DNA of 64,000 bases from an uncultured Acidobacteriota bacterium (GCA_964384905.1 CAYLND010000002.1:669-64668), one strand, 5' to 3'; shown: positions 533 to 25,750, counted from the first letter of the stretch. Numbers and translations are program-made. Notes: generated by a model not told the origin, from the letters alone.

Positions 533-548
533 TGGCATCACGTTTGCT
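533..548 (+). promoter_or_regulatory. candidate sigma-54 (RpoN) promoter, TGGCAT-N5-TTGCT
   Basis: TGGCAT at 533-538, a 5-nt spacer and TTGCT at 544-548 match the -24/-12 consensus TGGCAC-N5-TTGCW. It sits about 40 nt upstream of the ATG at 587. Confidence 0.45.
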
Positions 549-7986: not shown

Positions 7987-8076
7987 CCCCTGTACGGCTC
8001 GGTCGCGGTCGCGACCCCGGACGTGCAGGTCGAATTCGTCGCCGAGGCCTAGCGGCTCGATCGACGGCCGCCGGTT

Positions 8077-8340: not shown

Positions 8341-8539
8341 CGGAATCCTCTCCTCTGCCCGGCGGATGGGCAAGTTCTTCGGGCAGCCGGGCCTCGCCCG
8401 AAGTGCAAGGCGCCCCAGGGGGTGAAGAAAGAAATACGCGCATCTCTCGCCGCCGTCAAGCACGATCCGCGGCGTCGATCACCGATGGGTCGACCGGCAT
8501 CAGTCCGACGTATGATCCCGACCCCCTGAAGGAGGGAAC

Positions 8540-8809
8540 ATGAAGAAGACCGTGGTACCTGTCGTCGCGCTGCTTGTGCTGACCGGCGGTTTCCTCTTCG
8601 CCGCCAGACCGGCCCAGAACGTGGGCCCCGGCCGTCATCCGAATCTCGCCGCCGCGCAGAGGCTCGTGCGGGAGGCGTTCGAGAAAATCAGCGCCGCCCA
8701 GAAGGCGAACGAGTGGGACATGAGCGGACACGCACAGAAGGCCAAGGAGCTTCTCGACCAGGTCAACGCCGAGCTGAAGGAGGCGGCCGAAGCAGCCAAC
8801 CAGAAGTAG
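8540..8809 (+). CDS. small secreted alpha-helical protein (89 aa), function unknown
   Basis: GAAGGAGGG RBS. Signal peptide MKKTVVPVVALLVLTGGFLFAA, followed by a K/E/A-rich helical region. Confidence 0.5.
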   Translation: MKKTVVPVVALLVLTGGFLFAARPAQNVGPGRHPNLAAAQRLVREAFEKISAAQKANEWDMSGHAQKAKELLDQVNAELKEAAEAANQK

Positions 8810-9014
8810 ACGACGAGGGAATGGCCGGAACCGGGAAGAGGGTCAGGGGCGGGCCCTCAACAAAATCCCGCGGCGCTGGTCCGCCCCGGGTTCTCTCGAG
8901 AGCCCGCCCTTGGACTGCGTGCTGCGCTGCGGGCTTTCTGACGGGATAGTCAGCCCGAGCGCGCCTGCGCCGGGAGACGATCGCTCCCGAGCAGGCGACG
9001 GCGTCGGAAGAGAC

Positions 9015-9149
9015 CTACGCCGCGCGATACCTTCTCTGCAGCTTCTTGAAGGCAGAGACCAGCCGGGCGTGCCGCTTCCGAGCCTGCACGGCCTGCCGAA
9101 AAGCCTGCCTCATCTTCGCCTGCAGCTTCCTGCGTGTTCTCTTGGTCAT
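9015..9149 (-). CDS. very basic 44-aa protein (MTKRTRRKLQAKMRQAFRQAVQARKRHARLVSAFKKLQRRYRAA), function unknown
   Basis: AGGAGG RBS 6 nt before the second ATG. Highly K/R-rich helical peptide. Divergent from the histidine kinase gene. Whether it is a real gene is uncertain. Confidence 0.3.
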   Translation of the reverse strand: MTKRTRRKLQAKMRQAFRQAVQARKRHARLVSAFKKLQRRYRAA

Positions 9150-9356
9150 CATCCACCTCCTGCCCGGAACATAATTCCCTGTGCAACCGGAGTCCAGCAT
9201 CCGGGCACTCGACGCAGCCGGGTCGTGGTCATGGAGAGTTGCAAAGGGGTCAAGGAGCGGAAAAGAGTCAAATTTCCGACACGGCGGAGAACAGGCTGGC
9301 GCGGGATCACTCGAACCGGTGTCCGTGCTTGACCTCGAAGACGGGTCTCATCGATC

Positions 9357-11162
9357 ATGGGAATCATGCCCGACACGCGCGCCGACCACGACCTGAAGCA
9401 GCGCAACCTGGAGCTGGAGACGCTGCGCGAGCTGTCGGAGCGGATCCAGGACCGGCACGGCGAGGAGGAGATCCTCCAGGCGGCGCTCGATCTGGTGCTG
9501 GACAGGCTGAGGCTGCAGGCCGGATGGATCTTCTGGGGCGAGGCAAGCCGCGGCGCCATGGAGCTGGCGGCGAGCCGCGGACTGGCGGAGGGATTCCTCC
9601 GACAGGCCCGCGAGCGCGGCGTGGGAGACTGTCTCTGCAAGGACGTGTTCGCGACGGGACGGCTGCGGGTGGCGCGCAATACTCTCGAGTGCCCGCGGCT
9701 CCCGGATCTCGTCTGCGGGAGCGCCACGCAGACGCATGCCTGCATCCCGCTGAAGTTCGAGCGCGGCACGCTCGGCGTCCTGAACATCGCCAACCGGCCC
9801 GGCGAGCTGTTCACGCGGCAGGAGCTGCAGTTCCTGGAGACGGTCGGCTACCAGGTCTGCCTCGCGGTCGACAAGGCGCGCTCCAGTCGCATCGAGAACC
9901 GGCGCAACGCCGAGGCGCGCGCCCTGGTCGCCCTGACCCGCGCCATCGGGGGAAGCCTCGATCAGGAGCGCGTCCTCGCCGCCGTCGGCTCGTACGGCCA
10001 AGAGCTGCTCCAGGCGGATCGGTGCGCGATCTTCCTCGGGGACGGGATGACCCCTCCGCGTCTGGCCTACCTTTCGGGTCCGCCGATGGCAGGGCTCGAG
10101 GTCGGCGCCACGGTCGACTTCGCGGCCCTGGGATCCAAGGCGGTTCTCGGGGCGCTGACCTCGCGCCGGACGCTCGTGATCCAGGACGCCAGCAGCGACG
10201 AGCGCGTCAACGCCGACCTGGCGCGTCGCTGGGGGATCCGATCGGGCATCCTGGTCCCGCTCCTGGCGCACGGCCGGATGGAGGGGCTGCTCGCAGCCGA
10301 TCGGGGCCAGGCGTCGACCTGGAGCCGGGAGCAGATCGAGCTCGCGGACGCCCTGGCGGCGCACGCGGCGGTGGCGATCGAGAACGCACGTCTCTATCGC
10401 GAGGCCCGGGAAGCGCTCCTGCAGCTGCGGGCGGCGCAGCACGGGATGCTGCGGGCGGAGCGCCTGGCCGCGGTCGGCACGCTGGCCGCGAGCCTGGCGC
10501 ACGAAGTGCGCAATCCCCTCAACTCGATCGGCCTGCAGCTCGTGCTGTTGTCACGCCGCGTCGCGCGGCTGGGGAGCGCCGCCGATCCGGACATGATCTC
10601 CCTGATCGAGAGAGCGCGCCTGGAGATCGATCGGCTGGATGGTCTGGTCGGAGAGTTCCTCTCGCTCTCGACGATCGACAGGGTCCGACTGGCGGAGCAC
10701 GATGTCCGGACGATCGTGCACGAGATCCTCGGTCTCATGGTCCAGGTCGCCCAGCAGAAAGGAATCGAGCTCGAGGAGCGCGCCGCGCCCGCTCAGGCCC
10801 ACGTGATGGTCGACGAGGAGAAGATCAAGCAGGTCCTCATCAATCTGGTGCGCAACGCGATCGAAGCGACCCCGAAGGGCGGGTCCGTGGTGGTGTCGAC
10901 GCGGGTCTCGAGGGACGCCGTGGTGATCGAAGTCGCGGACACCGGCGTCGGGATCGGCCCTGATCTGGACGTGTTCGACTTCTTCACCACGACCAAACGA
11001 GGCGGCACCGGTCTCGGCCTGCCGATCGCGCGTCGGATCGTCGAGGCCCATGGGGGACGATTGACCTACGAGAGCCGGCCGGGGCAGGGCACGCGGTTCC
11101 ACGTCACGCTCGTGCCGCCCGACGAGGACGGCGCCGGCACCCGCACGGGGGAGCGGCGATGA
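9357..11162 (+). CDS. sensor histidine kinase with tandem GAF domains
   Basis: Two GAF-like regions, HisKA (LAHEVRNPLNSI) and HATPase_c (GTGLGL). Overlaps the response regulator gene by ATGA. Confidence 0.85.
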   Translation: MGIMPDTRADHDLKQRNLELETLRELSERIQDRHGEEEILQAALDLVLDRLRLQAGWIFWGEASRGAMELAASRGLAEGFLRQARERGVGDCLCKDVFATGRLRVARNTLECPRLPDLVCGSATQTHACIPLKFERGTLGVLNIANRPGELFTRQELQFLETVGYQVCLAVDKARSSRIENRRNAEARALVALTRAIGGSLDQERVLAAVGSYGQELLQADRCAIFLGDGMTPPRLAYLSGPPMAGLEVGATVDFAALGSKAVLGALTSRRTLVIQDASSDERVNADLARRWGIRSGILVPLLAHGRMEGLLAADRGQASTWSREQIELADALAAHAAVAIENARLYREAREALLQLRAAQHGMLRAERLAAVGTLAASLAHEVRNPLNSIGLQLVLLSRRVARLGSAADPDMISLIERARLEIDRLDGLVGEFLSLSTIDRVRLAEHDVRTIVHEILGLMVQVAQQKGIELEERAAPAQAHVMVDEEKIKQVLINLVRNAIEATPKGGSVVVSTRVSRDAVVIEVADTGVGIGPDLDVFDFFTTTKRGGTGLGLPIARRIVEAHGGRLTYESRPGQGTRFHVTLVPPDEDGAGTRTGERR

Positions 11163-12556
11163 CGCCGGGCAGAGGGCGCATCCTGATCGCGGACGACGAG
11201 GAGGCGGCGCGGACCACCCTGGGACAGATCCTCAGCGAGGACGGCTACGAAGTCTTCCAGGCCGTCGACGGCGAAGAGGCCCTCCGTCTCGTCGCCGAAC
11301 TGTCACCCGACGTGCTGCTGAGCGACCTCAAGATGCCCCGGCTCGACGGGCACGAGCTTCTCCAGCGCGTGCGCCAGGGTTATCCCGACGTCACGCTCGT
11401 GATCATGACGGCGCACGGAACGATCGACAGCGCCGTCCGGGCGGTCAAGCAGGGGGCCGAGGATTACCTGACCAAGCCGATCGACGTCGAGGAGCTCGAG
11501 CGGATTCTGGTGCGGGTGATGGACAAGCGGCGTCTGGTGGCGGAAACCCGCATCCTGCGCGAGCGCGTGGACGAGAAGTACCGCTTCGAGAACATCATCG
11601 GCCGCAGCCACGGGATGCTGGAGGTGTTCCGTCTGGTCGAGCAGGTCGCCCCGAGCCAGGCCTACATCCTGATCACCGGCGAGACCGGCACCGGCAAGGA
11701 GCTGATCGCGCAGGCGATTCACCAGCGCAGCGCTCGACGCGACGCGCCGTTCGTGAAGGTGGCCTGCGCGGCGCTGCCGGAGACGCTGCTGGAGAGCGAG
11801 CTGTTCGGGCACGAGCGCGGGGCGTTCACGGGGGCGCTGGCGCGGCGGTCCGGGCGGTTCGAGATGGCCGCAGGCGGAACGCTGTTCCTCGATGAGATCG
11901 GCGACATCACGCCCGGCGTGCAGGTCAAGCTGCTGCGCTTCCTGCAGGACCATCAGTTCGAGCGGGTCGGGGGCAACCAGACGCTGACGGTCGATGCGCG
12001 AGTCATCGCGGCGACCCATCGCAATCTCCAGACGCTCGTCCGCGAAGGCAAGTTCCGCGAGGATCTGTTCTACCGCCTCAACGTGATCGAGATCGCGCTG
12101 CCGCCGCTGCGCGCCCGCCCGCACGATCTCCCGCTCCTGGTCGAGTTCTTCCTGCGCCGCTTCGCCGCCGCCAACGGCAAGGAGCCCCTGTCCATCGCCG
12201 ACGACGCCCTCGCCGCTCTCGCCGGCTACGACTGGCCCGGGAACGTCCGAGAGCTCGAGCACGCCATCGAGCGCGCCGTCGTCCTGGCGCGCGGTCCCGC
12301 GATCGACCGGTCGCTGTTCCCCGCGCTCCCCGCGACCACACCGCCGCGCCCCGGCAACGGGCCGATCGTGCCGGGCTCCAGTCTCGAGGAGATCGAGCGC
12401 GACGCCATCCGCAAGACTCTCGAATCGGTCGGTGGCTCCACGTCGCGGGCGGCCGCCATCCTCAAGATCAGTCCGCGGACGATCCAATACAAATTGAAGG
12501 AGTACCGGCGGGGCGGTGCGGTCGACAGGCCGGCCACGACGCGGGGGAGGGAATGA
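11159..12556 (+). CDS. sigma-54-dependent response regulator, NtrC family (REC + AAA+ sigma-54 activator + Fis-type HTH)
   Basis: REC domain (ILIADDEE...D54 region), Walker [15 protein letters not shown] motif, C-terminal HTH. Confidence 0.9.
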
Positions 12557-12559
12557 GAA

Positions 12560-13717
12560 TCAGAGAGGTCGCTTGACGTCCGTGATCCAGGTCGTGACCG
12601 GCCCCTGGCGTGGATCGGACGCGTCGCGGTACGCGAGTCGGGCCGCGATCGCCCGGGCGCCCTGTGGCACGGACACCGTCAAGCGCTCCACGCGCGACTC
12701 ACCCGGGCGGATGCGGGTATCGGCTCCGACCGAAGCCGATTTCAGGAACATGTCGGAGACCAGCTCCAGCACGCTGCCTCGATCGTCTTTCAGCTCCCTG
12801 CGATAGATCCGCTCCTGGCGGAGCTCCAGCCGGCCGTCCGCGGTCTCGACGCCCACCTCTAGGATCAGGCTCTTGCTGGCCAGACCGCCCGGGATCGAGT
12901 GGCCGGCGGCCGCGTTGGTCACCGAGACGGTCACCGAGGCGGAACCGCTCCCTCGTGCGACCGAGTCGATCGTCAGGTCCAGCCCGCGCGCCAGCTGGCT
13001 CACGGCGCTGCCACCGACCAGCCGATGCAGATTGACGACCCGCAGCCCGCTCCGTGGCGGCGCTCCGGCCGCCCTGGTTCCCGGCACGAGCGCCATGTGA
13101 CAGTCCTGGCACGCGACGCCGCGGGCTGGATAGCCGCTGGCCTTCCACTCGCTGTAGTTCGAGAGTACGGCGACGCCTTGGGCGTTCCTGTACTCGTGGC
13201 AGGCGGCGCACAGGAGCGGGTTGTTGCGGTGCAGAGTCGAGTAGGCGGTCTCGTGCCCCTGCACCCGGCCGCCGGCGTAATCGAAGGGGCCTCGCTTCAC
13301 CGCCCCGGGCCGCGAGACGAACGGCGATCCCTGGGCATCCATCGTGACGTCCGCCACCGTGTGGCAGAAGTCGCAGGTCACTCCTTCGCGGGAGATCGGC
13401 TCCTCCATGCCGACGTCGGAGGTCAGGAGCGTCGTCGGCGCATGGCACCAGACGCACCCCTGGCGCGCGGTGGGGCCGGAGATCCGTGACAGAGATTCGC
13501 GGTAGGCGGCGCTCTCGGCCGAGCGCGCGTGGGCGGAGTCGGACCAGGCCTTGTAGATCACGTCGTGGCAAGCGCCGCACCTCTTCGCCGCAGTGTAAAG
13601 AGGCTCGGACGGTCGGGCGCTTTCGCTCGCGGCCGATCCGGACATGCGCGCGGACGTCAGGAACAGGAGCGTCAGGAGAACGGCGTGCCGGACATTCTCG
13701 CGGCGCATCAGCGGCAC
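12560..13717 (-). CDS. pentaheme c-type cytochrome, secreted
   Basis: Signal peptide plus five CxxCH motifs (CGACH, CVWCH, CDFCH, CAACH, CQDCH). Confidence 0.8.
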   Translation of the reverse strand: MPLMRRENVRHAVLLTLLFLTSARMSGSAASESARPSEPLYTAAKRCGACHDVIYKAWSDSAHARSAESAAYRESLSRISGPTARQGCVWCHAPTTLLTSDVGMEEPISREGVTCDFCHTVADVTMDAQGSPFVSRPGAVKRGPFDYAGGRVQGHETAYSTLHRNNPLLCAACHEYRNAQGVAVLSNYSEWKASGYPARGVACQDCHMALVPGTRAAGAPPRSGLRVVNLHRLVGGSAVSQLARGLDLTIDSVARGSGSASVTVSVTNAAAGHSIPGGLASKSLILEVGVETADGRLELRQERIYRRELKDDRGSVLELVSDMFLKSASVGADTRIRPGESRVERLTVSVPQGARAIAARLAYRDASDPRQGPVTTWITDVKRPL

Positions 13718-13724
13718 GAATCGT

Positions 13725-14258
13725 TCAATGGATCGTGGGCTCGGTGCGATGGGTCAGATCCATCGTCTCGAGACGTTCGAGATAGCCGCGCGCGATCGTT
13801 CCGGCATCCTCCCACTTGCCGTTCAGGACGAGGCGGTTGAGACTCGAGAGCATCACCAGACAACCGCCGAACTCCTGGAACACGCGGCAGAAAAGGCACC
13901 GGGTGCCGATCGATTCGGCGCGTGGATCGAACTTGAGCAGGCTCCGTTGGCGCGGCGCCTGTCCCTTGAGGACCGCGGCGCGAGTGACGTCCGCTTCGTC
14001 GCAGAACTCGTCCATGACGTTGGCGAGGCCGAGCACTCCAGGCTCGTCGCGCGCCTCGATGCGGCTCACGATCTCCCGCCAGCGCGCGATGACATCCGCT
14101 CGGGCCCTGTCCCAGGCGTTCTTACCGTCTTCGGTCACCTCGGGTCTCCTCGGAGGGCCCGGCCCGATCGCCGGGATCCCTTCCCTTTCCACTCCTTTGC
14201 GAAATCCATGCTCAGGGACGCTCTGTCCGGAGACGGCGGTTTCGAAGCCATCGGGCAT
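13725..14258 (-). CDS. hypothetical protein (177 aa) immediately upstream of the pentaheme cytochrome
   Basis: The C-terminal 177 aa of a long minus-strand ORF read as real protein (..CLFCRVFQEFGGC..LVLNGKWEDAGTIARGYLERLETMD). The stop lies 8 nt before the cytochrome start. No RBS recognised. The upstream part of the ORF is antisense to uspA and reads as nonsense. Confidence 0.4.
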   Translation of the reverse strand: MPDGFETAVSGQSVPEHGFRKGVEREGIPAIGPGPPRRPEVTEDGKNAWDRARADVIARWREIVSRIEARDEPGVLGLANVMDEFCDEADVTRAAVLKGQAPRQRSLLKFDPRAESIGTRCLFCRVFQEFGGCLVMLSSLNRLVLNGKWEDAGTIARGYLERLETMDLTHRTEPTIH

Positions 14259-14370
14259 GGGGTCCGGCGTCCGGCCGCAAAGATTTCCGCGCGTTCCCGC
14301 CGCCGGCGCAAGGGTTGCGTCCGCCCGCACGAGCGCGTCTCGATCCACCGGAGGACGGCCGAGTGAGTCA

Positions 14371-14386
14371 TGGCACCCGACTTGCT
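14371..14386 (+). promoter_or_regulatory. sigma-54 promoter, exact TGGCAC-N5-TTGCT consensus
   Basis: TGGCAC at 14371-14376, a 5-nt spacer, TTGCT at 14382-14386. It sits 57 nt upstream of the uspA-like ATG (14443), and the NtrC-type activator is encoded nearby. Confidence 0.55.
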
Positions 14387-14442
14387 TGAACGTCGGCGGG
14401 TCCCGGGAAGCGGGCGTGGCCGGCGCATCGTGGAGGCGGAAC

Positions 14443-14913
14443 ATGAAGCAAAAGCGTACGGGATCGGAACCTCGCTGGATTCTGGTCGGCATGGATTTCT
14501 CGCGGGCCGCCCGGCAGGCGCTGGTCGCGGCGCGCGGAGTGGCGCGGGAGCGCGATGCGACCCTCCTCGTCGTCCATGTGATCGACGGACAGGGTCTGGA
14601 GGAGGTGGCGCGTCTGGCGGAGGTCTCCGAGCGCGTTCTGCGCGAGCGGATCGGGCGCGAGCGGCGCCAGCGCCTGGCCGAAGCGCTGCGCGCGATGGAA
14701 GACGATGCAGACCCGGTTCCGACGGAGTCGATCATCGCCTGGGGTCGTCCGTTCGAGGCGCTCCTGAAGAAGGCGTCAGAGATCTCCGCCTTTCTCATCG
14801 TTCTGGGGACAGCGGGGCACTCGGCCGATCTCGAGAAGGCGCTGTTCGGCAGCACCGCGGAAAAGGTGCTGCGGTCGGCGTCCTGCCCGGTGCTGTGCGT
14901 GCCGGCGGAGTGA
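14443..14913 (+). CDS. universal stress protein (UspA family)
   Basis: GGAGG RBS. UspA-type pattern (LLVVHVID...GRP...LIVLGTAGHS...GSTAEKVLRSASCPVLCVP). Confidence 0.8.
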   Translation: MKQKRTGSEPRWILVGMDFSRAARQALVAARGVARERDATLLVVHVIDGQGLEEVARLAEVSERVLRERIGRERRQRLAEALRAMEDDADPVPTESIIAWGRPFEALLKKASEISAFLIVLGTAGHSADLEKALFGSTAEKVLRSASCPVLCVPAE

Positions 14914-14935
14914 GCGGGTCCGAGGCGATGCTTTC

Positions 14936-15380
14936 CAGGCTGGCCGTTCCGAGGGCTCTGCGATCCGGGCACCTGTGGCTGCGCCAGGGGCTGGCGGGTG
15001 CGATCGATCGGGGCGGGAAGACGGGGGTCGCCGCGCGCCGCGTCGTCGAGCTCCTCGAGCCGCACGTCGCCAGGGAAGAGGAGTTCGCGCTTCCGCCGCT
15101 CTCCCTGCTTCCCGTGCTCGCGCGGGGCGGGACGGTGTCCGACGAGGCGGGCGCCCTGGCGATGACCGACCGCCTCAGGGCCGAGATGAGCCGGATGATC
15201 GGCGAGCACGACGAGATCGCGGTCGCCCTGCACGCGCTCATCGTCGCGGCCCAATCGGAGGGGCACCCCGGGATCGCGGATCTGGCGAAGGAGCTCGTCC
15301 ATTATGCGGAGACGGAAGAAGAGGTCCTGTATCCCGCGGCCCTCCTTGTGGGCGAGCTCCTGAAGTCACGCAGGGCCTGA
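14936..15380 (+). CDS. hemerythrin HHE cation-binding domain protein
   Basis: 148-aa helical protein with a H...HxxxE...H...HxxxE-type arrangement (EPHVAREEE...IGEHDEI...LVHYAETEEE). Confidence 0.65.
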
Positions 15381-15435
15381 GTCGACGGAGGCGCCCGTTC
15401 CGGCCCGATCGCCCGGCCGGGCGCCGAGAGGCAGA

Positions 15436-16809
15436 ATGCGCGACCTGTTCGTTGCGCTGACGCGGAGCACGATCAGTCTCGCGGGCTCGGCGCTCACCAC
15501 GGCGAGCGCCTGCGTCTTCCTGGTGCTCCTGGGGATCGATCTCGCCGGCCGGCTCCACAGCCCCTATCTCGGCATCCTCGCCTATCTGCTGATCCCCGCT
15601 CTCTTCCTCCTGGGACTGGCCCTGATTCCGATCGGCATCGCCTGGGAGCGCCGGCGGGCCCGGGGCGGGCCGGTGTCGTCGCTTCCGATCCTCGATCTCA
15701 ACGTGGCGCGGACCAGGACGATCGTGCTCGGCTTCCTGATCCTGACCGCCGCCAACGTGGTGCTGATCGCCACGGCGACCTACAAGGGGGCCGTGATCAT
15801 GGACAGCACGCGGTTCTGCGGGACGACGTGCCACACGATCATGGCCCCCGAGTACGCCGGCCACGCACGCAGCGCGCACGCGTCGGTGCGCTGCGTCGCG
15901 TGCCACATCGGTCCGGGCGGGACCTGGTTCGTGAGAGCCAAGCTGTCGGGCACGCGGCAGGTGCTGGAAGCGGCGCTCCATCTCTATCCGCGCCCGATCC
16001 CCGCGCCGGTCCAGGTGCTCCGGTCGGCGCGCGAGACCTGCACGGAATGCCACCAGGCGGCCAGGGATCTCGGCGACCGGCGTCGCGCGATCGGCCATCG
16101 CTCCGACGACCGCGGCAGCACGCGGCAGGAAACCGTCCTGCTGATGCACCTCGGTGGGAGGCGAGGGGACCGCGCCGTCGGGATCCACTGGCACGCCGAC
16201 CCGACCATCCGGATCCGCTACCGCTCGGATCCGAAACGCGAGGCGATCGACACGGTCGAGCTGTCGGAGGCGGACGGCCGGGTCACCACCTTCGCCCCGA
16301 AAGGCCGCGAGGTCGAATCCGCGGGCGCCGGCGCGGCGGCAGGTGAATGGCGCGTGATGGATTGCGTCGACTGCCACAACCGCGTGGCACATCCCTCCCG
16401 CTCGCCCGAGCGCGAGGTCGACGAGGCGATGGATCGGGGGCTGATCGACGCCACGCTGCCGTTCATCCGCCGTGAGGCCGTCCGGCTGCTCGGGCAGGCC
16501 GGTGGCGCGCCGGACCAGGCGCGCAGGGATCTCGCCGCGGGCCTGCGGGCGTTCTACGGGACGAGCGATCCGGCGCTGGCGGCGGCACGCAAGGAGGCGA
16601 TCGAGGCGGCCGGCCGAGTCCTCGGAGATCTCTACGACCGGAACGTCTTCCCCGCCATGAAGGTGAGCTGGGGCATCTATCCCGATCATCTCGGTCACGT
16701 CGATTCGCCGGGCTGCTTCCGGTGCCATGACGACAGCCACGTCTCCGCCGACGGCAGGGTGATCTCGCAGGACTGCGACACCTGCCATCGCGAGGAGACT
16801 CCGTCGTGA
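15436..16809 (+). CDS. membrane-anchored hexaheme c-type cytochrome (NapC/NirT-related; CymA/ImcH-like quinol dehydrogenase candidate)
   Basis: N-terminal TM helices, then six CxxCH motifs (CGTTCH, CVACH, CTECH, CVDCH, CFRCH, CDTCH). GAGAGG RBS. Confidence 0.75.
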   Translation: MRDLFVALTRSTISLAGSALTTASACVFLVLLGIDLAGRLHSPYLGILAYLLIPALFLLGLALIPIGIAWERRRARGGPVSSLPILDLNVARTRTIVLGFLILTAANVVLIATATYKGAVIMDSTRFCGTTCHTIMAPEYAGHARSAHASVRCVACHIGPGGTWFVRAKLSGTRQVLEAALHLYPRPIPAPVQVLRSARETCTECHQAARDLGDRRRAIGHRSDDRGSTRQETVLLMHLGGRRGDRAVGIHWHADPTIRIRYRSDPKREAIDTVELSEADGRVTTFAPKGREVESAGAGAAAGEWRVMDCVDCHNRVAHPSRSPEREVDEAMDRGLIDATLPFIRREAVRLLGQAGGAPDQARRDLAAGLRAFYGTSDPALAAARKEAIEAAGRVLGDLYDRNVFPAMKVSWGIYPDHLGHVDSPGCFRCHDDSHVSADGRVISQDCDTCHREETPS

Positions 16810-17933
16810 CCATCGGACGCATCGACTACGAGCGCGCTCCCTTCCTGATCATCTGGGAGACCACCCAGGCGTGCGACCTGGCCTGCCGTCACTGTCGCGC
16901 CTCCGCGCGTCCCTGGCGCGACCCTGCCGAGCTCAGCACCGCGGAGGGGGAGGACCTGCTCGGCCAGGTCGCGGAGCTCGGCACGCCGATCGTCGTCCTG
17001 AGCGGCGGCGATCCCTTGAAGCGCGACGATCTGTTCCGCCTCGTCGAGGTCGGCGCGGCGCTGGGGATCCGGATGGCCGCGATCCCGGCCGCGACGGAGC
17101 GTCTCACCGAGCGGGTGATCGTCGAGTTCGTCCATGCGGGGCTCAGCCAGATGGCGCTGAGCCTCGATTTTCCGAGGGCGGCGCTGCACGATCGCTTCCG
17201 GGGGGCCCCGGGAGCCTTCGAGCGCACGATCCGGGCGGCGGCCTGGGCCCGCTCCCACGCTCTGCCCCTGCAGATCAACACGACGCTCCATGCGGCCTCG
17301 GCTCCGTTCATCGACGAGATGATTGACCTCGTCGGCCGCCTGGGGGCCGTCTTCTGGGAGGTGTTCTTCCTGGTGCCGATCGGTCGCGGCTCGGAGCTGC
17401 AGGGGCTGACGCCGGCGGGGTGCGAGGAGATTTTCGCCGTCCTCTACCGGGCCCAGAAACGCGTTCCGTTCCTGATCAAGGTCACCGAGGCGCCGCACTA
17501 CCGCCGCTTCGTCGCGCTCAAGGAGCGCTCCGGGCGGGGATCCGAGGCGGCGCGACGACCGGTCCGCCGGCTTCCGGCGCAGCTCATCCGGACCGAGGGG
17601 CCGGGCCACTCCATCGGCCTCGCGCCGCGCGGGGTCAACGCCGGGAACGGCTTCCTCTTCGTCTCGCACACGGGCGACATCTACCCGAGCGGGTTCATGC
17701 CGCTCACCGCCGGAAACGTCCGGACCGACCGACTGGCGCGTGTGTACCGCGACTCGGAGCTCTTCCGGCGGCTGCGCCAGCCGGAGCGATTGACCGGCGC
17801 CTGTGGTCTCTGCGCCTTCAACCCGATCTGCGGTGGCTCGCGCTCCCGCGCCCTGGCGCTGACGGGTGATTATCTGGCCAGCGATCCCTGGTGCGGCTTT
17901 CGGACGCGGGTGAACCGGCTCGCGGGCTCGTGA
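16806..17933 (+). CDS. radical SAM/SPASM-domain protein, AhbD/NirJ-like
   Basis: LIIWETTQACDLACRHC (CX3CX2C in the AhbD/NirJ sequence context) plus a C-terminal SPASM-type Cys cluster (CGLCAFNPICGG). GTG start overlaps the cytochrome stop (GTGA). Confidence 0.8.
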   Translation: MTIGRIDYERAPFLIIWETTQACDLACRHCRASARPWRDPAELSTAEGEDLLGQVAELGTPIVVLSGGDPLKRDDLFRLVEVGAALGIRMAAIPAATERLTERVIVEFVHAGLSQMALSLDFPRAALHDRFRGAPGAFERTIRAAAWARSHALPLQINTTLHAASAPFIDEMIDLVGRLGAVFWEVFFLVPIGRGSELQGLTPAGCEEIFAVLYRAQKRVPFLIKVTEAPHYRRFVALKERSGRGSEAARRPVRRLPAQLIRTEGPGHSIGLAPRGVNAGNGFLFVSHTGDIYPSGFMPLTAGNVRTDRLARVYRDSELFRRLRQPERLTGACGLCAFNPICGGSRSRALALTGDYLASDPWCGFRTRVNRLAGS

Positions 17934-18111
17934 TCGAGGTCGAATGTTTCGCGCGTCTCGACGCGCCGCGCATAAATTGCGCCGCGCTTGTGGTCCGGAT
18001 GGCGAAGGGAGCGACGGATTGAGGTCGTCACGCGCAGGGCATGAGGATTGCAGTGGCGAGCGATCGATGAGGGAGCGAATGGACAAGCCCCTATCCTCGA
18101 GAGACCACTCC

Positions 18112-19071
18112 ATGTCGAGAGCACCGATACGCATGATTCTCGGCTTCGCGGCGGTGTCCGTCATCGTGCCGGCAGGGTGCGCCGTCTCGATCGCGTCGGA
18201 GCAGGCGACGCAGCAGGTCACCGAGACGAAGACAAAGACGGCCGCCGGATCGGGGTACGCCGAGCCGGGCGCCTGCGCCGCCTGCCACGAGGCGGAGGCG
18301 GCGGCACTCGCGGCGACCAGGCACGGCAAGACCGGGAAGACCAACTGGGAGGGTGCGGCCGGCTGCGAGGCCTGTCACGGTCCCGGCGCGGCGCACGTGG
18401 AGGCGGGGGGCACGAAGGAGACGATCCGCAATCCGGCGACGCTTCCCGCCACCGAGCTCAGCGCCGTCTGCCTGAGCTGCCACGAGCGCGGCGATCAGTC
18501 GCACTGGAGCGGCAGCGCGCACGAGGGACGCGGTCTTGCGTGCACCTCCTGCCACAGCATCCATCACTCCGCCTCGCCGACGACCAAGCTTCTCCTCAAG
18601 AAGACCGAGTTCGAGACCTGCACGTCATGCCACCTGAAGCGGAAGGCGTCGCTCTATCGCTCCGCCCACATGCCGATGCGGGAGGGTCAGGTCACCTGCA
18701 CCTCCTGTCACAACCCGCACGGCAGCAACGGGCCGTCGATGCTGAAGCAGTTCTCGGTCAACGAGAACTGCTACGCCTGCCACGCGGAGAGACGGGCGCC
18801 GATGCTCTGGGAGCATCCACCGGTCAAGGAGAGCTGCACCAACTGCCACGATCCCCATGGGTCGCTGCACCCGCGACTGCTGATCGCCAAGGTCCCGCGT
18901 CTGTGCCAGCAGTGCCACGACGAGACGCGCCACCCGACGCAGCCGTACTCGGACGCCTCGGTGGCGCCCGAGTTCTTTCCGAACAGCCGGATGTTCGACC
19001 GCGGCTGCGTGAACTGCCACTCGATGATCCACGGCTCGAACCATCCTTCGGGGATGCGATTCCTGAGATAG
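18112..19071 (+). CDS. periplasmic decaheme c-type cytochrome, MtrA/DmsE/PioA family
   Basis: Signal peptide and ten CxxCH motifs in ~320 aa, matching the MtrA-family spacing. The start is ambiguous (ATG 18067, 18079 or 18112). 18112 gives a canonical signal peptide with GAGAG 9 nt upstream. Confidence 0.8.
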   Translation: MSRAPIRMILGFAAVSVIVPAGCAVSIASEQATQQVTETKTKTAAGSGYAEPGACAACHEAEAAALAATRHGKTGKTNWEGAAGCEACHGPGAAHVEAGGTKETIRNPATLPATELSAVCLSCHERGDQSHWSGSAHEGRGLACTSCHSIHHSASPTTKLLLKKTEFETCTSCHLKRKASLYRSAHMPMREGQVTCTSCHNPHGSNGPSMLKQFSVNENCYACHAERRAPMLWEHPPVKESCTNCHDPHGSLHPRLLIAKVPRLCQQCHDETRHPTQPYSDASVAPEFFPNSRMFDRGCVNCHSMIHGSNHPSGMRFLR

Positions 19072-19082
19072 GAGGGACGGTC

Positions 19083-21461
19083 ATGACGTGGCGCGGCATC
19101 GCCATCGGACTCGTGATCGGAGCGTGCTTCTGGCCGTCGGTCGCGTCCGCCGCCGACAAGGAGCAGAAGGGGAGCGTCACGGGCGAGGCGCTGGTCGGGG
19201 TCACCGGTCAGGATCAGGACCCGGTCGACTCCGCCAAGTTCCACGAGTTCCGGGACGTGCCGAGCGGCTTCACCGCCGACCGCCTGTTCCTGAGCTGGAC
19301 GCCCAGGGAAGACTTCTTCTTCGATCTGCGCGCGGCCGACGTGTCGCAGCGCGACCAGAGGATCGGGGTGACGTTCGGCAGGACTGATCTCTGGCAAGGA
19401 TCGATGACATGGACGGAAAACCCCCGCCTCTGGACCGATCACGCCCGTCAGCTGTATGCCCGGCAGGCGGGAGCCGTGTTCACTCTCGACGACTCCCTGC
19501 AGTCGGCCATCCAGGGCGGCGCGGCGAACGTCGACGCGGACAGCAACGGTCAATGGGACGCCGGGACCAAGGGGGCGATCCTGAAGAGCGCCATCAACAG
19601 CTCCGCGCAGGAGATCCCCGTCGGGTGGCGCCGCGAGACGGGCGGCCTGGGATTCAGGCTGACCCCCGGACGTCACTGGACCTTCACCGCTTCCGGGCAG
19701 CGCGAGCGCCGCGCCGGCGCGATTCCGCAGTCGCTCGGGATGTACTTCGCGCTGTCGCCGAGCGAGGTCGCCGCGCCGCTCGATTACCGCACCGACTGGG
19801 AGTCGGTCGGGGCGGAGTACACCCGGCGAGGCTTCAACGCCGGCGTGCAGCTCACCGCCTCGCAGTTCGCGACCGGCTACGATTCGGTCACCTGGGACGA
19901 TCAGCTCTTCCTCAACGACACGGCGGTGAACGCCACGACGGCCGACCCGGCGCGCGGGCGCCTGTCCTCCGCCACCGGCAACCGGATGGCGCAGGGCACC
20001 CTGTTCGGCGGAGTCAACCTGCCGGCGCACACGCGCATCGACGCGACGGTGTCGCGCTCGCAGACGACGCAGGACGATCCGTTCCTGCCGACCACGACGA
20101 ACACCTTGCTGTCGCCGGCCGCCCTGCCGGCGACGAGCTACGACGGAAAGTACGACGTCGACTTCGCCTCGTTGAGGGTGTCGTCTCGGCCGACGAAGCT
20201 TCTGCGCTGGTCGGCCTGGGCCCGCGACTGGAAATACGACAACAAGTCGCCCGATCCGACCTTCGCCGACTATGTCATGACCGACTACCAGATCCCTCTC
20301 TGCCAGAACGCCAACGAGTGCGGCGCGACCACGAACCACATCGCTCGCCGCAGCCTGCCGTACGGCTGGCACCGCACGAACTTCGGAGGGTCCGCCGGCA
20401 TCCACCCGGTGTCCTGGCTGGACGGATCGCTCTCTCTCGAACGCGAGGACATCCGGCGCGATTTCAGCGCGGTCACGCGGAGCCACGACGACACGCTGAA
20501 GGTGACGCTCGATTTCGACGTCGCGGAGTGGCTCAGCATCAAGACGACTGCGCGCCGGCAGGAGCGGCGGGCCGACGACTACGACGCCGAGTACAACCTG
20601 GCGTCGTTTCCGATCGGCGAGGCGTTCGTGGCCGCCTCCAACGAAGGAGAGCGGCGCTTCATCTGGACCGACCGCGACCGCGATCAGTACAGTCTCCTCC
20701 TCGATTTCAACGCGACGAAGACGATTTCGATCTATGCCGAGACCACCTACACGCGGGATCTGTATCTCGATCCGAACACCGGAAAGCACATCGGGGATTC
20801 GTTCACCGTCCAGGAGGATCGCAACTTCGATACGGTTCCCGAGACCATCGACCTGCTCCTGGCGGGCCGGACCGACGACAAATACCTGTCCTACACGCTC
20901 GGGTTCGGCATCGCGCCCGGTCCGCGCTTCAGTCTCTACGCCGACTACACCTGGGAGGACAGCACCTACGGTCTCGAGAGCCGCTTCCGCACGCCCGTGT
21001 CCGGCATCGGCTCCGACAATCCGCTGGACAACTGGGGCGCCGACACGGACGACAGGTACAAGACCGCCACGCTCGGCTTCTCGGCAGATCCGTCGGGGGA
21101 CGCACGCTGGAAGATCGACGTCGACGCCTCCCGCTCGGAAGGGACCGGCAGGATCGCCAACCATTTCGTGCCCGGCGGGAACGCTTCCTCGGACACCACT
21201 CTCCTCGAATTCCCTCTCCTGAAGACGACGCTGACGATCGCGCAGGTGGGTTTCACGCGGACAATCAACAAGAGCCTCGACTACTCCGTTCGCTACTGGT
21301 ATGAGTCGTGGCACGAGGACAACTTCGCGAGCGATTTTTCACAGCCTTACATGGGGGATCCTGGAAACGATCCGGGGTCGGGGACTTCGATCTTTCTGGG
21401 CCTGGATTTCGCGAACTACACGAACCATCTCCTGACCTTCTTCATGCACTATCGGTTCTAG
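19083..21461 (+). CDS. decaheme-associated outer-membrane beta-barrel porin, MtrB/PioB family
   Basis: GGAGGG RBS, signal peptide, ~790-aa beta-rich protein ending in aromatic residues (FMHYRF). Sits 12 nt downstream of the MtrA-like gene, as in mtrAB/pioAB/mtoAB loci. Confidence 0.8.
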   Translation: MTWRGIAIGLVIGACFWPSVASAADKEQKGSVTGEALVGVTGQDQDPVDSAKFHEFRDVPSGFTADRLFLSWTPREDFFFDLRAADVSQRDQRIGVTFGRTDLWQGSMTWTENPRLWTDHARQLYARQAGAVFTLDDSLQSAIQGGAANVDADSNGQWDAGTKGAILKSAINSSAQEIPVGWRRETGGLGFRLTPGRHWTFTASGQRERRAGAIPQSLGMYFALSPSEVAAPLDYRTDWESVGAEYTRRGFNAGVQLTASQFATGYDSVTWDDQLFLNDTAVNATTADPARGRLSSATGNRMAQGTLFGGVNLPAHTRIDATVSRSQTTQDDPFLPTTTNTLLSPAALPATSYDGKYDVDFASLRVSSRPTKLLRWSAWARDWKYDNKSPDPTFADYVMTDYQIPLCQNANECGATTNHIARRSLPYGWHRTNFGGSAGIHPVSWLDGSLSLEREDIRRDFSAVTRSHDDTLKVTLDFDVAEWLSIKTTARRQERRADDYDAEYNLASFPIGEAFVAASNEGERRFIWTDRDRDQYSLLLDFNATKTISIYAETTYTRDLYLDPNTGKHIGDSFTVQEDRNFDTVPETIDLLLAGRTDDKYLSYTLGFGIAPGPRFSLYADYTWEDSTYGLESRFRTPVSGIGSDNPLDNWGADTDDRYKTATLGFSADPSGDARWKIDVDASRSEGTGRIANHFVPGGNASSDTTLLEFPLLKTTLTIAQVGFTRTINKSLDYSVRYWYESWHEDNFASDFSQPYMGDPGNDPGSGTSIFLGLDFANYTNHLLTFFMHYRF

Positions 21462-21495
21462 GCGCATACCTGAAGCGCATGGAGGACGTCTGACC

Positions 21496-23811
21496 ATGCC
21501 CGAACAGGATCAGGCACACGCGGGGCTCTCTCCGTGGTGGCGGCACGCCGCCATCCTGGTGATGATCTTCGGGTTCACCGTCCTGACCATCGTCACGGTC
21601 AGGACCTATACCAACGCGCCGCCGATACCGGCGGTCGTCGTCGATCAATCCGGGGCCCCGCTGTTCGGGCGGGCGGACATCGAGCACGGCCAGGAGGTCT
21701 TTTTCAAGTACGGGTTGATGGAGCACGGGACCCTCTGGGGGCATGGCGCCTACCTGGGCCCCGACTACAGCGCCGAGTACCTGCATCGTCTTGCGGAGAT
21801 CACGCGCGACACGCTGGCGACCTCGCGGTACGGTGTCGCGTACGCCGATCTGCAGCCTGCCGCGGCCAGCGACGTGAACGAGGCGGCCCGGCGCGAGCTG
21901 AAGGAGAATCGCTACGACGACGGGAAGGACAGGCTGACCTTCTCGCCCGGAGAGTCGGCGGCTTTCGCCGTCCAGAAGACGGAGTGGCACGACTATTTCG
22001 CGGGTCGCACGCCGGCACCCGGCTTGCCGGCCAACTACATCGGGAACACGGACGAGCTGGCGGCGCTGACCGCTTATTTCGCCTGGGCCGCTTGGGCGGC
22101 GGTCGCGAACCGTCCCGGCAAGGACTATTCCTACACCAACAACTGGCCGTACGACCCGGCGGCGGGCAACACGCCGAGCGCCTCGACCTATCTCTGGAGC
22201 GGGCTGAGTCTCGTCACGCTGCTCTCCGGTCTCGGTCTCGTCCTGTTCGTGTTCGGCAAGTTCGACTATCTCGGGTGGCGCGGCGAGAAGGGCACGGACC
22301 ACACGCACGGCAGCAACCTTCTCGGCTGGCGGACGACCCCGAGCCAGCGGGTCACCGCTCTCTACTTCGTGGTCGTGGCCCTGCTCTTCCTGCTCCAGAC
22401 GCTCGCCGGCGGCGCCCTGGCGCACTATCGGGTCGAGTCGGGCGCGTTCTACGGGCTCGATCTGGCGCGTTTTCTGCCGTACAACCTGCTGCGCACCTGG
22501 CACCTGCAGCTGGCGATCTTCTGGATCGCAACCGCCTGGGTGGCGGGCGGGCTGTTCCTGGCGCCGATCGTCGGAGGCGGCGAGCCACGAGGCCAGAGGG
22601 CCGGTGTGGTGATCCTCCTCGGCGCCCTCGCGGTCGTCGTCTTCGGGAGTCTCGCCGGCGAATACCTCGGGATCAACGGCCGGCTCGGCGGGCTCTGGTT
22701 CTGGCTGGGGCATCAGGGCTCGGAATATCTCGACCTCGGCCGCTTCTGGCAGCTCCTTCTGGCGGTCGGCCTCGTCCTGTGGCTGGTGCTGATGTTCCGC
22801 GCCTTGCGCCCGGCGATGAAGCGAGGCGGTCGGGACTCGCTGGCGGCGCTTTTTCTCTACGCCGCGGTGGCCATCCCGGTCTTCTACCTGCCCGCGCTGT
22901 TCTACGGACCGCACACCAACTACGCGGTCATCGACAACTGGAGGTTCTGGATCATCCATCTCTGGGTGGAGGGGTTCTTCGAGCTGTTCGCCACGGTGCT
23001 GGTCGCCGTCATCTTCTTACAGATGGGGCTGGTGAGCGCGCGCACGGCGACGCGCCTGGTCTACCTCGACGCCATTCTCTATCTGGGCGCGGGCGTCATC
23101 GGCACCGGACACCACTGGTACTTCACCGGCCAGGGGACGCTCAACATGGGTCTGGCGGCCTGCTTCTCCGCCATGGAAGTGGTGCCGCTGACGCTCCTGA
23201 CGCTGGACGCGTGGGACTTCGTCCGGCTCAAGGATCGGCGCTGCGACGATTGCGGGAAGCCGTTCGCCGCGCGCCAGAAGTGGGCGATCTACTTCCTGAT
23301 GGCGGTCGGATTCTGGAACTTCGTCGGGGCGGGCGTGTTCGGCTTCCTGATCAACCTGCCGATCATCTCGTATTTCGAGATCGGAACGGTGCTGACCAGC
23401 AACCATGGGCACACCGCCATGTTCGGCGTGTTCGGCATGCTGGCGCTGGGCGTTCTGGTGTTCTGCCTGCGCGCCCTGACGGACGACGAACGGTGGGCCC
23501 GCAGCGAGCCGCTGGTGCGGGTCGGCTTCTGGGGGCTCAACGCGGGTCTGGCGCTGATGGTGCTCCTGGACCTTTTCCCCGCCGGGGTCGTTCAGCTCTG
23601 GGACTCGTTGGAGAACGGCTACTGGCACGCTCGGCGGCTCTCGTTCACCATGACCGGTATCTTCCACACCCTCGAATGGCTGCGAATGGGCGCCGACCTC
23701 TGTTTCCTGCTCGCGGGCGTCGTCCCGCTCGTCGCCGCGACCCTGCGCGCCGCAATCGGCGGCCGCATCGAATCGGGCGCCCTGCCTGCCTCGGCGACCC
23801 ATCCTCGCTGA
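21496..23811 (+). CDS. norZ: quinol-dependent nitric-oxide reductase large subunit (qNOR)
   Basis: 771 aa with an N-terminal extension carrying the qNOR-type ...VFFKYGLMEHGTLWGHGAYLGPD motif, 12+ TM helices, and heme-copper/NOR catalytic motifs HLWVEGFFE and GHHWYF. Confidence 0.85.
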   Translation: MPEQDQAHAGLSPWWRHAAILVMIFGFTVLTIVTVRTYTNAPPIPAVVVDQSGAPLFGRADIEHGQEVFFKYGLMEHGTLWGHGAYLGPDYSAEYLHRLAEITRDTLATSRYGVAYADLQPAAASDVNEAARRELKENRYDDGKDRLTFSPGESAAFAVQKTEWHDYFAGRTPAPGLPANYIGNTDELAALTAYFAWAAWAAVANRPGKDYSYTNNWPYDPAAGNTPSASTYLWSGLSLVTLLSGLGLVLFVFGKFDYLGWRGEKGTDHTHGSNLLGWRTTPSQRVTALYFVVVALLFLLQTLAGGALAHYRVESGAFYGLDLARFLPYNLLRTWHLQLAIFWIATAWVAGGLFLAPIVGGGEPRGQRAGVVILLGALAVVVFGSLAGEYLGINGRLGGLWFWLGHQGSEYLDLGRFWQLLLAVGLVLWLVLMFRALRPAMKRGGRDSLAALFLYAAVAIPVFYLPALFYGPHTNYAVIDNWRFWIIHLWVEGFFELFATVLVAVIFLQMGLVSARTATRLVYLDAILYLGAGVIGTGHHWYFTGQGTLNMGLAACFSAMEVVPLTLLTLDAWDFVRLKDRRCDDCGKPFAARQKWAIYFLMAVGFWNFVGAGVFGFLINLPIISYFEIGTVLTSNHGHTAMFGVFGMLALGVLVFCLRALTDDERWARSEPLVRVGFWGLNAGLALMVLLDLFPAGVVQLWDSLENGYWHARRLSFTMTGIFHTLEWLRMGADLCFLLAGVVPLVAATLRAAIGGRIESGALPASATHPR

Positions 23812-23875
23812 CGACCTGCGGCAGCCGTGATTCCGGCTCCCGACATTGCGCGGCCGCGACCCGGACCTATATTTG

Positions 23876-25651
<1,776 letters not shown>

Positions 25652-25750
25652 GAACCCGCCCGCTTGCTTTCCCTCGTGGTGGAGACCAGATTTCGCGCTG
25701 CGGACGGGACGAGTTCCGCCTGGAGGAGCTGAGCCATTCGTCGCCCACGC

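Follow-up and report, generated by a model that had tools for sequence, protein, structure and literature searches.

The stretch of DNA analyzed here (64 kb; "the window" below means this whole stretch) probably derives from an uncultured soil acidobacterium of the class Polarisedimenticolia, a taxon taken only from the names of homologues of its proteins. Between positions 9357 and 23811, where G+C is 66-71%, it carries genes for an outer-membrane porin-cytochrome conduit of the MtrA/MtrB type, for a NapC-like inner-membrane cytochrome, for a GAF-domain sensor kinase with an NtrC-type activator, and for a quinol-dependent nitric oxide (NO) reductase (qNOR). We consider it probable, though short of assured, that this cluster is a conduit island switched by sigma-54, to which a qNOR was added in this lineage, and that the role of the qNOR is to remove NO when the conduit operates. 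The parts of the island are familiar; the repeated joining of a qNOR to a sigma-54-controlled conduit, in soil bacteria that are abundant, offers a concrete way into the disputed connection of iron redox cycling with NO/N2O turnover. An earlier reading of the same DNA (the original prediction) had called the mtrAB-qNOR architecture undescribed, and indeed our literature search found no paper on mtrAB or mtoAB beside a qNOR gene.

A Co-Directional Run from usp to the NO Reductase

All genes named in the original prediction were found in their places by gene calls and family searches (Table 1), and gene calls repeated on three identical public contigs (Logan assemblies SRR12313479, SRR12313480, and SRR12313483) gave the same genes. 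From usp to the qNOR gene they are co-directional, separated by 14, 55, -4, 145, 11, and 34 nt. No terminator-like site lies in any intergenic gap; seven occur in the scanned region 12400-26000, which is not above chance. Sigma-70 promoters are likewise missing from the gaps, and their totals are at chance level. The 145-nt gap before mtrA shows no unusual fold (z-score -0.31) and no structured RNA, and no Rfam family matched anywhere in 8000-24500. The tightly spaced run that had been described is thus borne out by the short gaps free of terminators. This includes its last step, where the qNOR gene (norZ) had been placed directly after mtrB: neither a terminator nor a sigma-70 promoter was found in the gap of 34 nt. 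The kinase and activator genes had also been placed beside a sigma-54 promoter. These genes are there, but they do not adjoin the promoter directly, as two minus-strand genes intervene.

The Conduit and its Inner-Membrane Partner

The family assignments of MtrA, MtrB, and qNOR survive searches with hidden Markov models and with sequences of solved structures. MtrA scores 258.2 bits against TIGR03508 (cut-off 192.2) and matches the solved chain A of 6R2Q over its full length (residues 26-327 on 25-330, E 1e-70). It has an N-terminal hydrophobic segment, a Sec signal peptide also present in homologues, and is assigned to the periplasm. A lipoprotein form was considered and rejected: the cysteine in the signal peptide is not kept among homologues. 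The porin belongs to its family by PF11854, though it stays under the cut-off of TIGR03509 (174.6 bits against 240.05, aligned over residues 38-582 of 792). A sequence search against solved chains, the solved MtrB included, gave no match at E<=1. The window MtrB is a divergent member of the family. About 100 homologues share 40-80% identity with it and nearly all of them are metagenomic; those with names are annotated as MtrB/PioB of Acidobacteriota, often of Candidatus Polarisedimenticolia.

No protein of the cluster passes TIGR03507, the family of MtrC/OmcA-type surface decahaem lipoproteins. The secreted pentahaem cytochrome encoded on the opposite strand scores 20 bits and has no lipobox. 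The earlier statement that a surface cytochrome is absent stands, and because of this absence a layout of the MtoAB/PioAB type is supported for the conduit.

The inner-membrane cytochrome had been called a membrane-anchored hexahaem protein like CymA or ImcH. Six haem motifs are indeed present, five CxxCH and one CX3CH, and the membrane anchor consists of three N-terminal transmembrane helices. The match to PF03264 covers the N-terminal part. Against the NrfH family TIGR03153 the protein reaches 46.8 bits, under the cut-off of 134.2, and its only solved relative is NrfH (2J7A, E 0.004). Whereas the first haem motif of NrfH and NapC is CxxCH, here it is CX3CH followed by Met (FCGxxCHxxM; FCGTTCHTIM in the window), and this form is invariant in 18 of 18 aligned homologues. 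By these features the protein is a NapC/NrfH relative with an extended architecture.

How these parts belong together was judged from about 75 related loci, drawn from Acidobacteriota metagenome-assembled genomes and soil metagenomes and given L numbers here: 17 come from species-representative genomes and 52 from Joint Genome Institute (JGI) metagenomes, together with the contexts of three close MtrB homologues. Many of the JGI loci look like soil or rhizosphere samples. Tblastn searches with the window proteins and a clustering of open reading frames (ORFs) served for the comparison. In every locus with enough flank, mtrA directly precedes mtrB. The commonest neighbor of the pair is the napC-like gene (18 loci), usually right after mtrB or before mtrA, and genes for the radical SAM protein, the pentahaem cytochrome, Usp, a small protein with four conserved cysteines (Cys4), and the kinase and activator each occur in 6-9 loci in varying orders. 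In a second class, mtrAB stands by itself amid unrelated genes (e.g., L009, L011, L013, L025, L034). Because of the constant mtrA-mtrB pairing and the frequency of the napC-like gene, the conserved device, as read from these loci, is a quinol-linked inner-membrane cytochrome with MtrA and the MtrB porin.

As expected from family membership, the NapC-like protein would exchange electrons with the quinol pool, and the pentahaem cytochrome and MtrA would carry them through the periplasm and the MtrB barrel. Together they would form a complete electron route that connects the quinol pool with the outside of the cell, with the radical SAM protein, Usp, and Cys4 traveling with it.

In some distant mtrAB clusters, a protein of about 800 aa joins a cytochrome b to a c-type domain with nine haems; the coordinates recorded for these distant-cluster proteins are L006 18063-20471, L014 19136-21565, L010 4653-6086, and L014 5960-9205. 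Judged by eye, L014 also seems to have a ResB/CcsA-type cytochrome c biogenesis fusion. These observations suggest that distant clusters have alternative inner-membrane partners.

Probable Regulation through Sigma-54

The promoter that had been predicted upstream of usp (P1) is present, and it is the sole exact TGGCAC-N5-TTGCW in 64 kb, where 0.00 are expected from 100 shuffles. A palindrome, CGCAA-N3-TTGCG, lies upstream of it in an exact and, farther out, in an imperfect copy (Table 1). Matches to this palindrome with at most one mismatch number three in 64 kb, and two of the three are found 64-68 nt upstream of P1 and of a second site, P2, which precedes mtrA. For a given palindrome, the chance that a sigma-54 site with two mismatches falls in the right 80-nt span downstream is roughly 0.01. 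On the opposite strand, the Cys4 gene diverges from the sigma-54 promoter region and is itself preceded by a sigma-54-like element. With P1 on one side and this element on the other, the palindromes thus would lie between two divergent promoters. In the relatives, the element before the Cys4 gene reads TGGCAC-N5-TCGCA (L021, L023, L026), TAGCAC-N5-TCGCA (L006, L014), or GGGCAC-N5-TCGCA (L016).

Comparison of loci carries the case for regulation. Before usp, exact or one-mismatch sigma-54 promoters occur in L006, L014, and L026 and weaker ones in L021 and L023; before mtrA, such promoters occur in L019, L021/L022, L023/L024, L026, and L035. None precedes mtrA in the examined mtrAB loci that are without the kinase, activator, Usp, and Cys4 genes. 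Sigma-54 promoters with CGCAA-N3-TTGCG recur before usp or mtrA in all loci that encode the kinase, the activator, and Cys4. Within the subclade of the window, every one of these promoters has the palindrome upstream: the mtrA promoters of L021, L023, and L026 have it at about -110 and an imperfect copy 30 bp further upstream, and the usp promoters of the same loci have a single copy at -64 to -88. Promoter, upstream palindrome, GAF kinase, and activator thus recur together, and the sigma-54/NtrC control claimed in the original prediction is well supported by comparison for this family of clusters.

The kinase has no transmembrane segment in its hydropathy profile and is hence cytoplasmic. Its gene overlaps that of the activator by 4 nt, and its orthologues (68% identity) adjoin the activator gene in L023 and L026. 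The AAA+ domain of the activator matches PF00158 (Sigma54_activat) with 240 bits, and orthologues at 70-75% identity were found in L016, L021, L023, and L026. The window itself carries no rpoN gene. In the scheme that we propose, the double-GAF kinase would phosphorylate the activator. We infer that the activator binds the palindromes; from the tandem CGCAA-N3-TTGCG it would fire the sigma-54 promoters, including the divergent element before the Cys4 gene, as the comparison supports. P1 would drive the usp, hemerythrin, napC-like, and radical SAM genes. P2 is probably a second promoter, driving mtrA, mtrB, and the qNOR gene, because it is intergenic, is spaced from its palindrome as P1 is from its own, and has counterparts before mtrA in relatives; read-through from P1 is also possible.

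Elsewhere in the window, a one-mismatch sigma-54 match (TGGCATCACGTTTGCT, 533-548, plus strand) is located 27 nt upstream of ORF 575-1276, which encodes 233 aa with no Pfam family. No CGCAA-N3-TTGCG palindrome is near this site. The ORF is a possible further target of sigma-54 in this genome.

A Stress Regulon?

In Ralstonia eutropha norR-norA-norB, a sigma-54 activator with a GAF sensor controls a hemerythrin-like di-iron protein and a qNOR. The window likewise combines a sigma-54 activator, GAF sensing, a hemerythrin-like protein, and a qNOR. One may therefore ask whether the cluster is a nitrosative or hypoxic stress regulon like norR-norAB or DosR, in which the cytochromes would serve NO or nitrite chemistry in the periplasm and not extracellular transfer. 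The presence of Usp, hemerythrin, and qNOR under a sigma-54 activator with a GAF sensor favors this explanation, as does the c554/c552-like family of the pentahaem cytochrome, since NO-related chemistry has been reported for c554 of Nitrosomonas. However, NorR is a one-component regulator, whereas the window has a GAF kinase and an NtrC-type response regulator, and the GAF domains gave only generic matches, none of them to NorR, DosS/DosT, or NreA. The cargo of norR-norAB is NO detoxification, whereas the conserved cargo here is the porin-cytochrome conduit: the core kept over about 40 loci consists of MtrA, the MtrB porin, and the NapC-like cytochrome, a device that spans the outer membrane.

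The hemerythrin also stands against this explanation. Its gene had no tblastn match in any related locus except the identical contigs, so that, as far as this comparison reaches, it is an addition specific to the window lineage, just as the qNOR is confined to a subclade. The protein was considered as a RIC/YtfE/NorA di-iron NO-stress protein and rejected: only PF01814 matched within its 150 aa, and the ScdA_N domain that NorA, RIC, and YtfE carry is lacking. In a search aimed at its subtype, no solved relative was found at E<0.1. The proposal that GAF and hemerythrin domains sense NO or O2 gained no support, as in our searches neither resembled any known sensor specifically. We regard the stress-regulon explanation as highly improbable.

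The NO Reductase: Identity and Recruitment

The residues of qNOR that form the quinol site and those that ligate FeB and the haems are known. In the window, the enzyme aligns over its full length (residues 19-752, E 2e-173) with the qNOR of Geobacillus stearothermophilus (3AYF). It has 13 hydrophobic segments and no CxxCH: in a single polypeptide, a cytochrome-c-like N-terminal domain without a haem c motif is fused to the 12-helix core of the haem-copper-oxidase type. His310, Glu314, and Asp734 align with His328, Glu332, and Asp746 of the Geobacillus quinol site, and the motifs IIHLWVEG (486) and GHH (538-540) are kept (for the residue roles see in part bioRxiv 10.1101/2023.11.21.568154). An NO dismutase, considered as another identity, was rejected on the basis of the kept quinol-site residues and HLWVEG/GHH. 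Judged by these residues, the enzyme is a true quinol-dependent NO reductase.

Among the related loci, in-cluster qNOR genes are limited to the subclade with MtrB identities to the window of 74% or more, where the window itself, L021/L022, L023/L024, and L028 have one. The gene takes three arrangements there, all of them co-directional and with 11-500 nt between it and a gene of the cluster. Besides the window arrangement, it lies 496 nt after mtrB in L028, and in L021/L022 and L023/L024 the order is mtrA-mtrB, the pentahaem gene on the opposite strand, radical SAM, napC-like, and qNOR, the last following the napC-like gene after 11 nt. The enzymes are of two kinds. With two stand-alone acidobacterial qNORs (L078, L079) the window enzyme shares 85% identity, but only 71-72% with the in-cluster qNORs of L021, L023, and L028. 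The latter share 88-90% identity with one another and 81-84% with their next relatives, which stand alone in L081 and L082. MtrB identity between the window, L021, L023, and L028 is 74-79%. Two distinct qNOR lineages thus appear to have been recruited separately into orthologous clusters. The chance of a single-copy gene lying within 10 kb of a given gene is roughly 0.4%, and because the observed association is far above this, the double recruitment does not look accidental.

It could nevertheless be argued that a common, mobile, stand-alone detoxification qNOR simply landed beside mtrB, with co-transcription as an incidental result. The closest relatives of both types do stand alone in unrelated neighborhoods (L079-L082), and the qNOR is missing from most related clusters. 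The family is also very large and highly conserved: the database search gave 7865 matches at E<=1e-100, the best 120 of them at 71-85% identity, and the named ones among these come from several phyla. Against this stand, however, the occurrence of two lineages in orthologous clusters, in three co-directional arrangements close to cluster genes, and the short terminator-free gap in the window. A window-type qNOR is also found 8 kb from a paralogous mtrB (52% identical) in L078, at 10001-12289 and 20547-22289; the two are on opposite strands with unrelated genes between them. We think it unlikely that the adjacency is meaningless.

In the sister lineage, a conserved element of about 35 nt (ATGATGCAGCGCTTCGCG-N6/7-GCGCAAGACC) stands directly upstream of the radical SAM-napC-qNOR, napC, or qNOR units. 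It was searched for in the window and is absent there. The element is possibly a promoter or operator.

Several observations weigh against the explanation that we prefer, a sigma-54-switched conduit island with an added qNOR. First, the qNOR is absent from L025 and L026 of the close subclade and from about 15 informative loci of the clade with 50-58% identity, and since it is missing from most related clusters it is not required for the conduit. Second, the qNOR units of L021, L023, and L028 are preceded by the other element and by no sigma-54 site. Thus, with L021 and L023 lacking such a site, sigma-54 control of the qNOR is not general. Third, sites of the grade of P2, with two mismatches, number 13 in the window against 15.4 expected, and P2 taken alone is not significant. 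Fourth, the regulation by P1 and P2 and the function of the conduit are argued from sequence comparison. Finally, the source of NO has to be assumed, because no nitrite or nitrate reductase, nor any other nitrogen-oxide reductase besides the qNOR, is encoded within the 64-kb window. The original prediction had made the qNOR integral to the module. The repeated association agrees with this, but core status does not, given its absence from L025, L026, and the more distant clusters. On present comparison, the link of the qNOR is real and probably selected, yet accessory and lineage-specific.

Direction of Electron Flow and Role of the qNOR

The quinol pool is all that the conduit and the qNOR have in common, and the sequence does not tell which way electrons run. 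Electron uptake, put forward in the original prediction, is a competing explanation: Fe(II) or another extracellular donor would be oxidized at MtrAB, electrons would pass inward by way of the pentahaem and NapC-like cytochromes to the quinone pool, and the qNOR would spend them on NO. The joint presence in one unit of a quinol-dependent NO reductase and a quinol-linked cytochrome of the inner membrane would suit such a path, and so would the twofold recruitment of the qNOR. Acidobacteria generally use menaquinone, however, which makes inward flow from Fe(II) energetically marginal. Most related clusters have no qNOR, no nitrite reductase is in the window to supply NO, and the sequence fixes no direction. 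The known relatives point both ways: MtoAB and PioAB, tied to Fe(II) oxidation, share the two-component layout that does without MtrC (PMC10654088), but an MtoAB-type two-component conduit is expressed during Mn(III) reduction (bioRxiv 10.1101/695007). On balance, electron uptake coupled to NO reduction is conceivable but doubtful.

In the reading that we prefer, NO removal during conduit operation, the qNOR would be co-produced with the conduit in this genome, as the layout suggests, and would draw on the same quinol pool. NO would arise where Fe(II) meets nitrite chemically, in a habitat whose redox state fluctuates, and the qNOR would remove it while the conduit runs. As a result, anaerobic iron redox cycling and the reduction of NO to nitrous oxide (N2O) would be switched on together.

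Accessory Genes and Neighborhood

Table 1. Features of the conduit island and its surroundings, with the conserved element of related loci in the last row.
Feature	Positions	Strand	Remarks
Sensor histidine kinase, GAF-GAF-HisKA-HATPase_c	9357-11162	+	Pfam and NCBIfam; H-box His is residue 382
NtrC-type sigma-54 activator	11159-12556	+	Receiver, Sigma54_activat, Fis-type HTH_8; GAFTGA at residue 221
Secreted pentahaem c-type cytochrome	12560-13717	-	PF13435; Sec signal peptide, no lipobox
Cys4 protein, 137 aa	13725-14138	-	Four invariant cysteines in alignment: C46, C81, C84, C93
Sigma-54-like element GAGCAT-N5-TCGCA	14198-14213	-	Degenerate at -24; about 60 nt upstream of Cys4 gene
Distal imperfect palindrome copy CGCAAAGATTTCC	14276-14288	.	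31 bp upstream of proximal copy
Exact palindrome CGCAAGGGTTGCG (CGCAA-N3-TTGCG)	14307-14319	.	Starts 64 nt upstream of P1 start; candidate enhancer (upstream activating sequence)
Sigma-54 promoter P1 (TGGCAC-N5-TTGCT), TGGCACCCGACTTGCT	14371-14386	+	57 nt before usp ATG
Usp, first gene of P1 unit	14443-14913	+	PF00582, 90 bits
Hemerythrin-like (HHE) single-domain protein	14928-15380	+	PF01814, 29.7 bits (cut-off 25.3)
NapC/NirT/NrfH-like inner-membrane multihaem cytochrome	15436-16809	+	PF03264, 32 bits (cut-off 24.1)
Radical SAM/SPASM protein, family TIGR04053	16806-17933	+	TIGR04053, 432.4 bits (cut-off 395)
Second palindrome copy CGCATAAATTGCG	17969-17981	.	One mismatch; starts 68 nt upstream of P2 start
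Probable sigma-54 promoter P2 (GGGCAT-N5-TTGCA)	18037-18052	+	GG and GC kept; 27 nt before mtrA ATG
Decahaem cytochrome, MtrA/DmsE/MtoA/PioA family	18079-19071	+	Ten CxxCH in 330 aa
MtrB/PioB-family outer-membrane porin, 792 aa	19083-21461	+	PF11854, 224.8 bits (cut-off 23); signal peptide
qNOR (NorZ)	21496-23811	+	PF22085 and PF00115; 34 nt after mtrB; own GGAGG ribosome-binding site
Ser/Thr protein kinase, one transmembrane helix	23876-25651	+	64 nt past qNOR, same strand
Element ATGATGCAGCGCTTCGCG-N6/7-GCGCAAGACC	L021 ~13600-13640; L023 ~13640-13680; L026 ~13575-13615; L028 ~3005-3045		Not sigma-54-like

The two minus-strand genes between the activator and P1 were both absent from the original prediction, and both recur in related clusters. 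The pentahaem cytochrome has its five CxxCH in the N-terminal 210 residues; the C-terminal domain that follows, about 170 residues long, is haem-free. Among solved structures, cytochrome c552 of Thermochromatium tepidum is closest (5ZE8, E 3e-11), and the protein is c552/c554-like. Orthologues are convergent to mtrB in L021, L023, L026, L027, and L032 and also occur inside the L006 and L014 clusters. The protein is a candidate for a periplasmic shuttle or an outward partner of the conduit; in the ptd operon, a similar pentahaem cytochrome with a beta-sandwich domain adjoins the porin (bioRxiv 10.1101/2023.11.21.568154).

The Cys4 protein has no Pfam match and no name in any source. Its family comprises 40 protein clusters among 5.8 billion proteins, all unnamed, and is apparently confined to these Acidobacteriota. 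Structure prediction gave a helical bundle in a model of moderate confidence (predicted local distance difference test, pLDDT, 68), with no fold match at E<=0.001 and merely generic matches to four-helix bundles at E>0.4. The gene is present in L006, L014, L016, L021, L023, L026 (two copies), and L035, and in every case it diverges from the region of the sigma-54 promoter. Usp orthologues at 59-67% identity were found in L006, L014, L016, and L026.

The radical SAM protein had been described as AhbD-like. At the level of the superfamily this is correct, but AhbD itself was rejected (300.8 bits against the cut-off of 500 for TIGR04545), and the protein belongs to TIGR04053 instead. Orthologues at 63-69% identity occur in L006, L014, L018, L021, L023, and L026. 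It may supply haem under anoxia. No paper on TIGR04053 was found in the literature. For the coproporphyrin-dependent haem pathway, the coproheme decarboxylase that works without oxygen has yet to be identified (PMC10965808), and the TIGR04053 protein, an AhbD/NirJ relative that travels with multihaem cytochrome genes, is a candidate for it.

Upstream, the cluster is flanked by ABC transporter, TPR, and OsmC genes, and downstream by a Ser/Thr kinase, a transglutaminase, an AraC regulator, and an exopolysaccharide cluster. Pkinase genes are found as well in the vicinity of the closest stand-alone qNORs, those of L078 and L079, and of mtrAB in L011, L013, and L034; this recurrence may be chance, such kinases being common in Acidobacteriota. 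The exopolysaccharide cluster occupies 28400-64000 and is unrelated to the conduit. It encodes a Wza-like exporter, a heparinase II/III-like protein, glycosyltransferases, a Wzc-like tyrosine kinase, a sugar transferase, an epimerase, and two further radical SAM proteins.

Relation to Known Systems

In MtoAB-CymA of Sideroxydans lithotrophicus and PioAB(C) of Rhodopseudomonas palustris, as in the window, a gene for an MtrA-family decahaem cytochrome is immediately followed by one for an MtrB/PioB porin, and there is no MtrC/OmcA gene. The mto cluster also shares a membrane-anchored NapC/NirT-type cytochrome. However, CymA has one helix and four haems, whereas the window cytochrome has three helices and six haem motifs including the CX3CH. 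The window further differs from mto and pio in its additional genes (the c552-like pentahaem cytochrome, the TIGR04053 radical SAM protein, Usp, and Cys4), in its sigma-54 promoters with a dedicated two-component system, in the qNOR within the unit, and in its acidobacterial host. Its MtrB, as noted, is under the TIGR03509 cut-off without detectable match to the solved MtrB. In our literature search, the accessory genes, sigma-54 control, and an in-unit qNOR were found in no described mto, pio, or mtr cluster. The acidobacterial conduit cluster as such, with its three-helix six-haem CX3CH quinol dehydrogenase, c552-like pentahaem cytochrome, TIGR04053 protein, and Cys4, is undescribed in the literature searched.

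With MtrCAB-CymA of Shewanella (6R2Q), the window has in common the full-length likeness of MtrA and the order of quinol dehydrogenase, periplasmic haems, and porin-sheathed decahaem cytochrome. It differs in having no MtrC/OmcA surface decahaem lipoprotein and in its regulation and accessory genes.

Multihaem and porin genes together with an enzyme of the NOR family are also known from other anoxic settings rich in metals or nitrogen oxides. The occA-S cluster of "Ca. Dechloromonas occultata" is rich in cytochromes and includes a protein of the haem-copper-oxidase/NOR family (bioRxiv 10.1101/695007), and Alphaproteobacteria that transcribe nod have the porin-cytochrome operon ptd, nod and ptd not being adjacent (bioRxiv 10.1101/2023.11.21.568154). 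OccS, however, is without the usual active-site ligands and is not a qNOR, whereas the window qNOR is bona fide. Neither occA-S nor ptd has MtrAB-family parts in a unit with a bona fide qNOR, and neither is under sigma-54 control.

Significance

Whether nitrogen-oxide-coupled iron oxidation is enzymatic or chemical is a long-running question, and it also matters which soil organisms turn NO into the greenhouse gas N2O. The locus described here offers a concrete unit in an abundant uncultured soil lineage, with a promoter, a candidate enhancer, a sensor-activator pair, a full haem path from the inner to the outer membrane, and a qNOR that entered the cluster twice, and the comparison of loci indicates that sigma-54 control of mtrAB reaches distant relatives. 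A bolder proposition, which we put forward only tentatively and judge doubtful, is that soil Acidobacteriota have repeatedly wired a qNOR into a sigma-54-switched MtoAB-like conduit, so that electrons from extracellular Fe(II) or other solid donors are spent on NO. If true, such electron uptake would give a soil phylum of high abundance an enzymatic, genetically defined way to oxidize iron at the expense of nitrogen oxides and to produce N2O.

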